Positions 20,639-23,656 of a stretch of DNA of 26,641 nucleotides are shown here, in pieces (the stretch's first letter is position 1; every line of letters starts with the position of its first letter). The stretch is from a virus, in the IMG/VR virus record IMGVR_UViG_3300037067_021160; one strand, 5' to 3'. Below the pieces are notes generated by a model. That model was not told the origin of the DNA, searched no databases, and was given only the letters and a program-made list of their open reading frames with translations. The position numbers and the translations under genes are program-made.

Positions 20639-21034
20639 TTATACATCTATAATGCGTGCCTCAAACCACCCAGGTTCTTCAAAACATTCACTTACCGTAT
20701 TCACGATTTTATCGTAAATATCTGAAGTCAGTCCCGTCATTCCGGCTTCTTCGTACAATTTTGAATCGGATAGGCGCTTTTCCCACTCCTTATCTAAAAC
20801 ATCCATTGTAGACTGATCAATCTTATATGGAGGATGCGGAGCAAAATATTCTTCTTTTAATTCAGCTATGTACTCCTCATCACTTAACATATCCGGATCT
20901 ACATATAAATCATTACAAACTATGCCACGCTTTATACATTCTAGAATCTTGTCTAGATTTCCGTCGGAAGATCCAAAATAAATTATTTCCGGTTCAACAT
21001 CCAACCAATTAATTTTTACTTCTAGTAAACGCAT
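20639..21034 (-). CDS. hypothetical acidic protein (131 aa)
   Basis: Intact ORF. Its start overlaps the stop of the first array gene by 1 nt (TAATG). Confidence 0.5.
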   Translation of the reverse strand: MRLLEVKINWLDVEPEIIYFGSSDGNLDKILECIKRGIVCNDLYVDPDMLSDEEYIAELKEEYFAPHPPYKIDQSTMDVLDKEWEKRLSDSKLYEEAGMTGLTSDIYDKIVNTVSECFEEPGWFEARIIDV

Positions 21035-21465
21035 TATTCAAATAACTCCTTATTTAGTAATTTCCATTCATCTAAGTCATCTACATCGGATGCTCCGTGA
21101 TATGATCCTTCATAATTACCTAGTTTCCATGCTTTTCTTCCTTTATTAGTGGTGCTAGCAAGTTCTGTAATTACTTTATCTGGAATAGAAGTTAAAAGAT
21201 CCCCCTCTTTGGCTGTAAAAAGAATCTCTAGCGGCTCATAGGTATAATGCCCCTCAGTATCGAGAGGATTTTCCATAAACCACTTAATCATCGTTTGCTT
21301 ATCTTGTTTACTACTCATGTAGTATCCACTTTCCTCACCATATTCTGGAAGATTGACCAAAATATTGTTTTCACTTATCAATGCTTGCTTAAAAGTAATA
21401 GGCCTTCCGATAAAAGCAAAACTGGTAGAAGAACTATTACTTATAAATCCTTCTCTTGTTTTCAT
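21034..21465 (-). CDS. member 1 of N-terminal-motif paralog family (MKTREGFISNSSSTSFAFIGRPITF...)
   Basis: Shares the about 20-aa N-terminal motif with five upstream genes. Unrelated C-terminal region. Confidence 0.6.
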   Translation of the reverse strand: MKTREGFISNSSSTSFAFIGRPITFKQALISENNILVNLPEYGEESGYYMSSKQDKQTMIKWFMENPLDTEGHYTYEPLEILFTAKEGDLLTSIPDKVITELASTTNKGRKAWKLGNYEGSYHGASDVDDLDEWKLLNKELFE

Positions 21466-21466
21466 T

Positions 21467-22036
21467 TTATTTCTTTGTTAAGTATTTTTGAAACTCATCG
21501 TATGAAGGAAATCTTTTTCTTATTTCTTTATCAATGACTGTTGGTTTCAAATTATAGGTCTTCATGATATAGCTATTCCTGTCTCCCCTTGATACTACGA
21601 TCATGGAACAAACTGGACATTCGTGTGGGAGTATTGAGTTATCAAATATTTCAAGATCGCTTTCATTGTCCATCTGCCGCAATATCTCTAAATCTTCATA
21701 TTTATCAAATTTTGAATTTGATGCTTGCAACATACCTTCCAATGTTTCCATAATCCCATCATCATTAGGATCTTCGATTTTCTTCAAATGTTCAATACAT
21801 TTTTGGATTAATTTATTAAAATCCTCAAATCCGAAATTCGCAGCACACTCACTATTTTTAACTTCTTCCTTTGTTCTTTCCATACAGGTATCACATACGT
21901 AATGTCCGTTTTTACACACAACGAACCCAAATTCCTCAAGAGAGCAGCTATCCCATCCCGACTCGACTCTGTTGCATACTTGACACGTAAAACTAGTAGA
22001 AGAACTATTACTTACCCAACCACTTCGTGTTTTCAT
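21467..22036 (-). CDS. member 2 of N-terminal-motif paralog family; C-terminal part has Cys4 zinc-ribbon-like clusters
   Basis: MKTRSGWVSNSSSTSFTCQVC...CKNGHYVCDTC...CPVC. Confidence 0.6.
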   Translation of the reverse strand: MKTRSGWVSNSSSTSFTCQVCNRVESGWDSCSLEEFGFVVCKNGHYVCDTCMERTKEEVKNSECAANFGFEDFNKLIQKCIEHLKKIEDPNDDGIMETLEGMLQASNSKFDKYEDLEILRQMDNESDLEIFDNSILPHECPVCSMIVVSRGDRNSYIMKTYNLKPTVIDKEIRKRFPSYDEFQKYLTKK

Positions 22037-22038
22037 GA

Positions 22039-22488
22039 TTACATACCCGGAGAAAATTGAGCAAATGTCTTAAGATCATGATCGTGAATTAAATTCTTAA
22101 AAGGTAATTCATTTAATTCCCTTAATAATTCTTTTTCTTTTGCTTCTTTTATTGTAGGAACTTCCTGTAAGGCATTTTGACATATTTCTCCAATATCATA
22201 ACCAATTACAACAGGATGTTCTTTTGGATCTTCGTTATCGTAACCAGTCATTGAATCGGAGTATGCTGTGGTGTGTATTTCTAATTTAGATTTCTTAGGA
22301 AATTGTTTATATACTTCATCAGCGAATGTATCAAACCAATAATCTCCTCGTTCTTCGCTTTCCACAAAAGTTTCACTTTTTAGATTAACCTTGAACATCT
22401 TTACTGCCTCTTTAAACGAAACAGATACTCCACGAATTACAAAACTTGAACTTGAGCTGTTACTAACAAAACCGTTTCTTACTTTCAT
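22039..22488 (-). CDS. member 3 of N-terminal-motif paralog family
   Basis: MKVRNGFVSNSSSSSFVIRGVSVSF.... The stop overlaps the next gene's start (ATGA). Confidence 0.6.
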   Translation of the reverse strand: MKVRNGFVSNSSSSSFVIRGVSVSFKEAVKMFKVNLKSETFVESEERGDYWFDTFADEVYKQFPKKSKLEIHTTAYSDSMTGYDNEDPKEHPVVIGYDIGEICQNALQEVPTIKEAKEKELLRELNELPFKNLIHDHDLKTFAQFSPGM

Positions 22489-22874
22489 CTTTCATTTTCC
22501 CAATCGTTAATATCTTCCATATTATATGGAGCATTTGAATCCCCATAAAATGCATATAAGCACATTCCTTTGGTATCAATCTTATCCAATGGATATAGAA
22601 CACGATTATCCATATCCTGTGTAACTAAATGAGTTCTAAAGCACCTGTTCACATTTTTTAAAAGTTTTAAACTATCTTGAACCGCTTCTACCATTTCAAA
22701 TTTTTTAGGATCAAGCTCCCAAGCAGCCGTACCTTCGCCAAAATTTTCTATAATAGCTATGTGTTTATGCTTTATCAAATCTTCTTTTGTCAGAGTTTCA
22801 AATGGAACTTCCTTGCCAATAAGTGCAAAACTGCTTGTTGAACTGTTACTGACAAAACCTTGTCTTATTTTCAT
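22485..22874 (-). CDS. member 4 of N-terminal-motif paralog family
   Basis: MKIRQGFVSNSSTSSFALIGKEVPF... Confidence 0.6.
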   Translation of the reverse strand: MKIRQGFVSNSSTSSFALIGKEVPFETLTKEDLIKHKHIAIIENFGEGTAAWELDPKKFEMVEAVQDSLKLLKNVNRCFRTHLVTQDMDNRVLYPLDKIDTKGMCLYAFYGDSNAPYNMEDINDWENER

Positions 22875-22883
22875 TTATTTTCC

Positions 22884-23285
22884 TTAAAAATTGTCATTAC
22901 TTATCATTCGTACATAAGTGTGTACTGAATAATTTCCTAACCTTGAATCCATTTGTTTTAACATTTTCAAAACTTCCTTGGGTGTAGGATCTTCATCAAT
23001 TTGCGTTACAACTCCATCTTCAAAATCTGTGAGCATAACCCCGATAATAACGTCATTGTCATCAGACGGATCATCATCAAAATAATACTGAGTAGATCTT
23101 ACACAAAGTTCTAGATCACGTGTAGACTCCTCAAGTTGAGAATGTTTCGGCTCCCACACATCACATTCCGAATTGTTCAGTTCTTCTTCGAAAATTTCCA
23201 TAGCCAAACCGACAGGAACTTGCACACCCCGTATTACAAAACTTGAGCTAGACGAATTACTAACGAAACTAGTTCTTATTTTCAT
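22884..23285 (-). CDS. member 5 of N-terminal-motif paralog family
   Basis: MKIRTSFVSNSSSSSFVIRGVQVPV... Confidence 0.6.
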   Translation of the reverse strand: MKIRTSFVSNSSSSSFVIRGVQVPVGLAMEIFEEELNNSECDVWEPKHSQLEESTRDLELCVRSTQYYFDDDPSDDNDVIIGVMLTDFEDGVVTQIDEDPTPKEVLKMLKQMDSRLGNYSVHTYVRMISNDNF

Positions 23286-23656
23286 AGCAGCCTACCTTCT
23301 AAAATTGCTCTTGTTTTTTCTGTATTTATTAAATATACTGTGGATTCCGTGGAATCTTGACTAAGTTCCCCAACCACAAAATCTCCGAGCAATGACATTA
23401 GACGATGATACAATTGTGATTTATAGGGCCCATAAAGCCAAAGTTCATGATCACGCATTAATTCATCAAAACAAGTCTTTACACCATTTTTTAATTCATC
23501 AGCGTCCATAAGATTTGTATTCCCCTCATAAAAATCTGCATAATCTTCTTCCCAGTTTATACCTTCTGTTAATTTTTCAAATGTCATATCTTCAGGTAAA
23601 CAGACTATAAAACTTGTAGAGGAACTATTTGATACAAAACCTTTTCTAATTATCAT
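23282..23656 (-). CDS. member 6 of N-terminal-motif paralog family
   Basis: MIIRKGFVSNSSSTSFIVCLPEDMTF.... 4-nt start/stop overlap with member 5. Confidence 0.6.
   Translation of the reverse strand: MIIRKGFVSNSSSTSFIVCLPEDMTFEKLTEGINWEEDYADFYEGNTNLMDADELKNGVKTCFDELMRDHELWLYGPYKSQLYHRLMSLLGDFVVGELSQDSTESTVYLINTEKTRAILEGRLL

Follow-up and report, generated by a model that had tools for sequence, protein, structure and literature searches.

A conserved 16-residue N-terminal tag on diverse large-phage proteins and its candidate radical-SAM enzyme partner

In systems that make RiPPs (peptides made by the ribosome and then modified post-translationally), such as those of streptide (SuiB/StrB), the sactipeptide enzyme CteB, and SkfB, one radical S-adenosylmethionine (radical-SAM)/SPASM maturase serves many precursors that share a conserved leader. 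The anaerobic sulfatase-maturating enzyme (anSME) acts on whole proteins, the sulfatases. Short peptides can also direct proteins to a compartment, as T4 capsid-targeting sequences and encapsulin cargo peptides dock diverse cargo, and in polymorphic toxin and effector families a constant N-terminus precedes C-terminal payloads that diversify rapidly in tandem arrays. Here we describe an array of six genes in a 26,641-nucleotide stretch of viral DNA (IMG/VR record IMGVR_UViG_3300037067_021160; the whole stretch is called the window below), the products of which share a 16-residue N-terminal peptide (the tag) fused to unrelated payloads. From comparative sequence data we consider it rather likely that a dedicated phage radical-SAM enzyme recognises and modifies the tag, which would be carried by diverse effectors.

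The array lies at positions 21034-23656 of the window and consists of six consecutive minus-strand open reading frames (ORFs) of 124-189 amino acids (aa), given here from the most upstream gene downward.

23282-23656, minus strand: tagged gene 6, 124 aa; tag codons 1-16 at 23609-23656 (MIIRKGFVSNSSSTSF); 'FIVCLPED'-type payload with a net charge of -13
22884-23285, minus strand: tagged gene 5, 133 aa; tag at 23238-23285 (MKIRTSFVSNSSSSSF); member of the 'SFVIRG...ISNDNF' subfamily, net charge -18
22485-22874, minus strand: tagged gene 4, 129 aa; tag at 22827-22874 (MKIRQGFVSNSSTSSF); payload with no relative among the 461 collected family members
22039-22488, minus strand: tagged gene 3, 149 aa; tag at 22441-22488 (MKVRNGFVSNSSSSSF); payload a singleton in blastp clustering
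21467-22036, minus strand: tagged gene 2, 189 aa; tag at 21989-22036 (MKTRSGWVSNSSSTSF); payload in a zinc-ribbon-like subfamily of 45 members and rich in Cys (9 beyond residue 20)
21034-21465, minus strand: tagged gene 1, 143 aa; tag at 21418-21465 (MKTREGFISNSSSTSF); payload a singleton in blastp clustering

A first-pass annotation of the window had described six minus-strand genes with a shared N-terminal peptide, and the ORF coordinates, an alignment and a search with a hidden Markov model (HMM) of the tag all bear this out. The HMM, which covers the first 22 residues and was derived from relatives outside the window, matched exactly six window proteins, with E values from 1e-12 to 1e-14; the runner-up had an E value of 0.24. 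The alignment reads M-[KI]-x-R-x-[GS]-[FW]-[VI]-S-N-S-S-[ST]-[ST]-S-F, with M1, R4, S9, N10, S11, S12, S15 and F16 invariant. Two statements of the annotation needed correction in part. Stops and starts were said to abut or to overlap by 1-4 nt, which is true in general (the spacings are 1, 2, -4, 9 and -4 nt, and the following downstream gene overlaps by 1 nt) except for the 9-nt gap at 22874/22884; and the M-K start and the Gly at position 6 are found in most copies, the exceptions being one copy that begins M-I-I-R, with no Lys at position 2, and one with Ser in place of Gly6. The other claims about the array were sound. The proteins, said to be unrelated after about residue 22, have no significant pairwise similarity from residue 21 onward (the lowest E value among the 15 pairs is 0.11); one payload is Cys-rich and zinc-ribbon-like, and the acidity ascribed to the rest extends to all six (net charge -7 to -18). 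Synonymous divergence of the shared segment was also found as described: over the 16 tag codons the copies differ pairwise by 3-7 synonymous codons, with Ser codons changing between AGY and TCN; nucleotide identity over the tag is just 62-81%, while the peptide is kept. A promoter and terminator scan of the array yielded sites not above chance expectation.

In the public (JGI) gene calls, two of the six window genes start downstream of the tag and are thus truncated. P0003 (gene 22884-23285) is called as 113 aa starting at V21, and P0004 (gene 21467-22036) as 138 aa starting at M52, under the name 'excinuclease UvrABC nuclease subunit'. Conservation of the tag indicates that the longer ORFs of both genes are correct.

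The tag family extends far beyond the window. In an exhaustive HMMER census of 1.84 billion cluster representatives (50% identity), 24,789 proteins matched a profile of 97 members at E≤1e-3, and 2,662 did so at E≤1e-10. A profile search over 5.8 billion proteins gave 217 matches, nearly all beginning MKIRTGFVSNSSS[ST]SF, and the tag pattern occurred in more than 600 stretches of IMG/VR viral contigs among the matches listed. The family consensus is M-K-[ITV]-R-x-G-F-[VI]-S-N-S-S-S-[ST]-S-F. Two positions that were not in the search pattern are nearly or fully fixed in the 461 unique members, R4 being present in all 461 and K2 in 458; Gly6 is replaced by Ser in 17. Tagged genes are grouped in same-strand arrays of 1-14 copies, and their contexts are those of large phages: the contigs measure 50-460 kb, many of their small genes share a strand, and PTH2, FtsH and similar genes are present. 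Among 437 tagged genes in the fetched loci, the first tag codon is ATG in 419, GTG in 8 and TTG in 7, and an upstream in-frame Met is absent in 398. The tag is therefore the true N-terminus of these proteins. Furthermore, all six Ser codons and all six Arg codons occur at the invariant positions among 358 distinct tag-coding 48-mers, and selection therefore acts on the peptide rather than on DNA or RNA, as the first-pass annotation had held on the basis of the window alone.

That annotation also did not recognize the motif as any described family, and our searches agree. Scans of the six window proteins and the 97 members against Pfam, NCBIfam and PHROGs had as their sole match PHROG 7397, which covers the tag part only and is annotated 'unknown function'; no curated model in Pfam or NCBIfam describes the tag. 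A literature search in which most subscription journals were not covered found no paper on the tag motif or on phage radical-SAM/SPASM systems. Megablast of the array region against 50,697 phage records gave no match, and tblastn with a 32-aa tag consensus gave a single weak match, in Vibrio phage D479, the scarcity of matches being probably due to the low-complexity filter. The tag defines a very large, virus-specific family of small acidic phage proteins, undescribed in the sources searched. Some database proteins (P0248, P0249, P0254, P0256, P0259, P0263, P0275 and P0302) carry two tags, the second of which is internal and always follows a Met; these are probably adjacent tagged genes read as one, possibly owing to recoded stop codons in the source phages.

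Two known classes of N-terminal or glycine-containing motif were considered for the tag and rejected. A Sec, Tat or lipoprotein signal, the first of which had already been dismissed in the first-pass annotation, does not fit the Ser-rich stretch S-N-S-S-S-[ST]-S at positions 9-15, and the tag contains no hydrophobic core, twin-Arg or lipobox Cys. The glycyl-radical motif R-V-x-G-[FWY], with its invariant Gly, is one residue longer than the R-x-G-F of the tag, in which Gly6 is Ser in 17 of the 461 members; moreover, the tag is N-terminal rather than near the C-terminus, and the partner enzyme described below has an auxiliary-cluster domain, unlike a glycyl-radical activase, which would have no SPASM domain.

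What follows the tag is highly diverse. Clustering of the 461 unique members by blastp gave 126 groups, of which 92 contain a single protein. The proteins are typically 100-230 aa in length (median 129 aa, longest 423 aa); net charge is negative in 94% of them (median -9). When the 17 largest subfamilies were stripped of the tag and compared by their profiles, no pair of the 136 was at or above 90% probability, and three pairs were at 68-79%. No significant Pfam match was obtained for the 97 members; a 423-aa leucine-rich repeat (LRR) protein (E 1e-38) and a STAS-like DUF4325 protein are among the longer members, one subfamily of 45 members has Cys4 zinc-ribbon-like motifs, and many other payloads are orphans in fold. 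At positions 17-20 the tag passes directly into a hydrophobic strand. An AlphaFold2 (AF2) model of the gene 5 protein (22884-23285; predicted local distance difference test, pLDDT, 72; alignment of 13 sequences) has residues 1-11 unstructured, with pLDDT <50, and the first strand beginning at residue 15; fold comparison of this model returned no related fold. The subfamilies are unlike each other and the model leaves residues 1-11 unstructured; the tag is thus separable from the payload, a module that leads without a break into the initial strand of domains of many kinds. Because the payloads diversify fast, are small and acidic, and are encoded amid small uncharacterised genes, they may be intracellular host-takeover or anti-defence effectors. 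The resemblance to polymorphic toxin and effector families lies in the constant N-terminus, the rapidly diversifying C-terminal payloads and the tandem arrays; unlike in those families, the constant part is a mere 16 residues in place of a whole domain, the genes are not associated with a secretion or injection apparatus, and the small acidic payloads have no recognisable toxin domains.

Two payload subfamilies have conserved C-terminal endings, ...[FY][IV]SNDN[YFW] or ...LEHGxIFxxLxHxxIS[HN]H, which are borne by the window protein 22884-23285 and by members in loci L006, L036, L044, L005, L007 and L022. The C-terminal motif was found in 27 of 448 members, compared with 4 of 2,111 control ORFs, and these His- and Asp-rich endings might bind metal. 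An ...IS[NH][HD] C-terminus was considered as a family-wide trait and rejected on the same figures, 27 of 448 members in two subfamilies.

In a first clustering of all ORFs from 13 sources (12 loci and the window), the other recurrent family was a radical-SAM protein of 335-370 aa, located within 10 kb of tagged genes in 8 of the 12 non-window loci. The converse search of IMG/VR, starting from the enzyme, gave 105 confirmed loci; the counts below refer to 79 loci before dereplication or to 70 non-identical ones. Tagged genes lie within 10 kb of the enzyme in 64 of the 70 non-identical loci, 287 copies in all, with a median of 4 and a maximum of 13. Of the 340 tagged genes counted in the 79 loci that preceded dereplication, 339 share the enzyme's strand. 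In 38 loci (54%) the distance from the enzyme stop codon downstream to the start of the first tagged gene is less than 700 nt, and in 10 further loci the array ends just upstream of the enzyme. As a rough chance scale, random placement of ten copies in 200 kb would bring one into such a 700-nt interval in about 3-4% of cases. In several loci apparently devoid of the tag, variants of it are encoded beside the enzyme (...SNSSSCSF, ...SNSSSMSF and ...SNSSTVNF). No third gene family is conserved near the enzyme, the runner-up being present in 11 of the 79 loci.

In sequence features and predicted fold the enzyme resembles the radical-SAM proteins that mature peptides and proteins. The CX3CX2C motif (C50, C54 and C57) is invariant in 48 enzyme sequences; three of four tested homologs score 30.5-31.8 bits with Pfam Radical_SAM (cut-off 29.5), and two score 22.1-22.3 bits with Pfam SPASM (cut-off 21.5). 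The auxiliary cysteines C237, C262, C280 and C327 are invariant in the same 48 sequences and C324 is present in 77%, a set that would suffice for one Fe-S cluster and appears nearer to a twitch than to a full seven-Cys SPASM domain. The enzyme corresponds to PHROG 7293, also annotated 'unknown function', and has just weak matches to maturases in NCBIfam; its profile gave a marginal match only, to an archaeal lipid synthase, against PDB chain sequences. In fold, its confident AF2 model (pLDDT 93) comes nearest to the peptide and protein maturases SuiB, SkfB, anSME and CteB. About 45 residues precede the cluster motif, where the model has three short strands (residues 2-24) and no winged helix, and no PqqD-like neighbour is conserved in the enzyme loci. 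The enzyme is frequent in large phages, with at least 2,800 clusters.

Two variants of the enzyme gene were observed. In loci L053, L062 and L071 (ORFs starting near 9650-9720) the enzyme has an N-terminal extension of about 130 aa, for a total of 466-489 aa; these loci contain no tagged gene within 10 kb, the enzyme being flanked instead by conserved ORFs that encode roughly 480 and 680 aa, and their enzymes may represent a different functional branch. In L005 (7301-9382, plus strand) the radical-SAM gene is in two ORFs (7301-7852 and 8672-9382), separated by an ORF at 7855-8682, the 275-aa product of which contains 'EKHHILPKS...REH', an HNH-like motif. The split gene matched no Rfam intron, and the interrupting ORF looks like a homing endonuclease inserted in the enzyme gene.

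Co-occurrence was also examined in cultured phages, for which the scope was three phage genomes, that of EcL22g being scanned end to end, in addition to the 20-kb neighbourhoods. The enzyme is present in 177 phage records, mostly T4-like Pseudotevenvirus and relatives, with Klebsiella, Enterobacter, Cronobacter, Citrobacter and Escherichia as hosts. One tagged subfamily is present in 175 phage records, including RB43, and its genus profile nearly matches that of the enzyme. In Enterobacter phage EcL22g the enzyme gene is at 29.9 kb, and the tag occurs in exactly two genes, which lie at 50.3 and 54.2 kb and share the enzyme's strand. In the two regions of Citrobacter phage Margaery that were examined, gp115 and gp120 are tagged and gp166 is the enzyme. 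The enzyme of Vibrio phage D479 (258 kb, T4-like; first 100 kb scanned) is VPHD479_0104, and at least five tagged genes lie on its strand 1.4-10 kb away. The tagged genes of the T4-like genomes are situated amid small genes of unknown function, on the strand opposite to that of neighbouring baseplate genes.

On the combined weight of the two-gene module, the enzyme fold and the strictly terminal, invariant Ser-rich tag, the reading in which the tag would be the substrate of the radical-SAM enzyme is the best supported. One can envision the following mechanism. In most genomes the enzyme is encoded just upstream of the array and on the same strand; the N-terminal tail of each tagged protein would enter the active site, where 5'-deoxyadenosyl radical chemistry would alter at least one residue of the invariant R-x-G-F-V-S-N-S-S core. 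A single enzyme could thereby mature a whole, changing repertoire of effectors, in the manner of a RiPP maturase with many leader-sharing precursors. Candidate reactions, each with precedent among the structurally closest enzymes, would be oxidation of a Ser to an aldehyde, as carried out by anSME, epimerisation, and cross-linking through a carbon-carbon or ether bond.

The proposed system shares with RiPP biosynthesis the CX3CX2C motif, auxiliary cysteines of the SPASM/twitch type, and co-located, same-strand genes that have a conserved sequence in common. It differs in that the partner genes encode entire proteins (100-420 aa, with folded domains unrelated to each other), compared with RiPP peptides of 20-80 aa, and in that the conserved part spans just some 16 residues, which are themselves likely to be modified. 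A leader protease, transporter or exporter is not conserved in the loci, no full RiPP recognition element (RRE) domain is apparent in the enzyme model, and the system is viral. Because its products are whole proteins, and because a conserved protease or exporter and an apparent full recognition domain are lacking, it is not a member of the RiPP family. The likeness to anSME is that of an enzyme acting on protein substrates, as we propose for the tag enzyme; the sulfatase motif C/S-x-P/A-x-R is, however, absent from the tag, anSME has two auxiliary clusters whereas the phage enzyme has four invariant auxiliary cysteines, and sulfatases are one enzyme family whereas the tagged payloads are mutually unrelated.

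Several observations weigh against a substrate role of the tag. The putative enzyme-tag link rests on gene neighbourhood and co-occurrence, and the functional assignments as a whole on gene context and predicted structure. Six of the 70 enzyme loci, and several loci from metagenome-assembled genomes, have no tagged gene within 10 kb. The window itself contains no copy of the enzyme gene, since the contig ends 3 kb upstream of the array. In T4-like phages the enzyme and the tagged genes are 1.4-24 kb apart and do not adjoin; furthermore, the approximately 175 cultured phages are a single lineage and therefore count as one observation, not 175. The enzyme appears from its model to have no full RRE, only the short three-strand N-terminal sheet, and the AF2 model of a tagged protein is of moderate quality (pLDDT 72, 13 sequences).

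One alternative is that the tag is a targeting or packaging signal that docks cargo into the capsid, a shell of major vault protein (MVP) or another compartment, the radical-SAM enzyme being either unrelated or just a means of preparing the tag. The architecture does resemble the T4 internal-protein locus, a variable locus of a large phage in which several unrelated small proteins likewise begin with a short conserved peptide, and both the window and the related contig L032 have an MVP homolog at a distance of 1-7 kb from tagged genes. The first-pass annotation, which noted an MVP homolog and an SPFH/NfeD pair within 7-16 kb, likened the tag to T4 capsid-targeting and encapsulin cargo sequences and asked whether the motif always accompanies MVP homologs in related genomes. 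The comparison does not support such a link: an MVP homolog is within 10 kb in just 1 of 99 tag or enzyme loci, tagged genes have one nearby only in the window and L032, and none of the 14 viral MVP loci (0/14) has a tagged gene or the enzyme within 10 kb. MVP linkage was thus rejected at the level of 20-kb neighbourhoods, within which no shell gene is conserved, in contrast to what encapsulin (HK97-fold) and vault (MVP) cargo tags would lead one to expect. Nor is a capsid, portal or prohead-protease gene conserved beside the arrays. The tag has no sequence resemblance to the T4 capsid-targeting sequence, no conserved Glu at positions 1-22 that could serve as a prohead-protease site of the T4 type (L/I-x-E in T4), and no link to head genes; its conserved partner is an enzyme and not a prohead scaffold. 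The strong acidity of the payloads (median net charge -9) and the position of the T4-like tagged genes, among small genes of unknown function and opposite in strand to the baseplate genes, also speak against packaging, which we think unlikely. A targeting role that follows modification of the tag by the enzyme is possible.

Alternatively, the tagged proteins might be adaptor subunits, with the unmodified tag docking on the enzyme and each payload recruiting a different third-party substrate, such as a host protein or nucleic acid. The neighbourhood coupling fits this scheme too, some payloads contain modules that bind proteins (LRR, zinc ribbons), and the small N-terminal beta-sheet in the enzyme model could bind a strand. 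However, an invariant Ser-rich segment of 16 residues exceeds what a docking strand usually needs, and if 4-14 adaptors had to share a single enzyme, the majority of them would be unoccupied at a given time. To our knowledge, interchangeable adaptor subunits have no precedent among SPASM/twitch enzymes. We regard this explanation as improbable.

A still less probable proposal, to which we would allow only a slight chance, is that the payloads are one small, highly diverged domain, to which the tag contributes the opening strand and a Ser loop that binds a ligand such as phosphate. The hydrophobic strand directly after the tag at positions 17-20, the few subfamily pairs with 68-79% profile-profile probability and the ...IS[NH][HD] endings common to two subfamilies would be in keeping with a common fold; the absence of any subfamily pair at higher probability and the unstructured residues 1-11 of the modelled protein favour the separable module. 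Finally, the notion that the 48 nt are kept for cassette recombination, RNA structure or translation initiation, with the peptide as a by-product, is compatible with the tight packing of array genes and with the predominance of AAA at position 2 (282 of 358; AAA is often favoured directly after a start codon) and is effectively refuted by the codon data, in which every Ser and Arg codon is used at invariant positions across the 358 distinct sequences and window copies of 62-81% nucleotide identity retain the peptide.

The remainder of the window encodes the following features, none of which carries the tag.

700-1248, minus strand: peptide deformylase
4102-4523, minus strand: tmRNA gene predicted by ARAGORN, with tag peptide ANDTVERAEIIVADFARSLEDVPVAIAA
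5512-6987, minus strand: flotillin/SPFH protein
6994-7551, minus strand: NfeD-like protein, a weak match below the Pfam cut-off
7977-8051, minus strand: tRNA-Met predicted by ARAGORN
10862-11713, minus strand: DUF7873 protein
11858-14359, minus strand: MVP homolog of 833 aa, with Pfam MVP_shoulder (E 1e-22) and Vault_3
15310-16389, minus strand: full DnaJ
17015-17950, minus strand: protein with a Porin_5 segment
19962-20576, minus strand: Cys-rich protein with several CxxC pairs, flanking the array
23668-24033, minus strand: small DUF2158 protein, in the upstream flank of the array
24163-24789, minus strand: Cys-rich protein with several CxxC pairs, flanking the array

The two Cys-rich flanking proteins are 204-208 aa in length. 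The tmRNA, the tRNA-Met and the gene content fit a large phage genome. Homologs of the MVP-like protein with 39-50% identity were found in 14 IMG/VR viral contigs and in L032, and phage-encoded vault-protein homologs are thus a recurring family. In L064 and L070, DnaJ homologs are encoded no farther than 10 kb from the radical-SAM gene.

A broader proposition follows for large phages, and here the arguments on either side seem to us evenly balanced: that they possess a general protein-tagging system, in which one radical-SAM maturase would covalently modify a universal 16-residue N-terminal tag on tens of thousands of effectors. Such tagging may be a protein-scale counterpart of RiPP biosynthesis and may serve to activate, stabilise or direct anti-host effectors. 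The system could be tested in E. coli phage RB43 and its relatives that infect Klebsiella, Enterobacter and Cronobacter, which have one enzyme gene; the examined relatives of RB43, EcL22g and Margaery, have two tagged genes each. For annotation, the tag corrects start-codon calls. If the tag is indeed what the enzyme acts on, this would be a new post-translational modification system working on whole proteins, and the tagged proteins, with approximately 25,000 clusters at 50% identity, would be among the largest undescribed protein families. It would give a role to the radical-SAM enzyme and to many 'hypothetical' genes of large phages, and the 16-residue tag together with its enzyme could provide a compact tool for site-specific protein modification.

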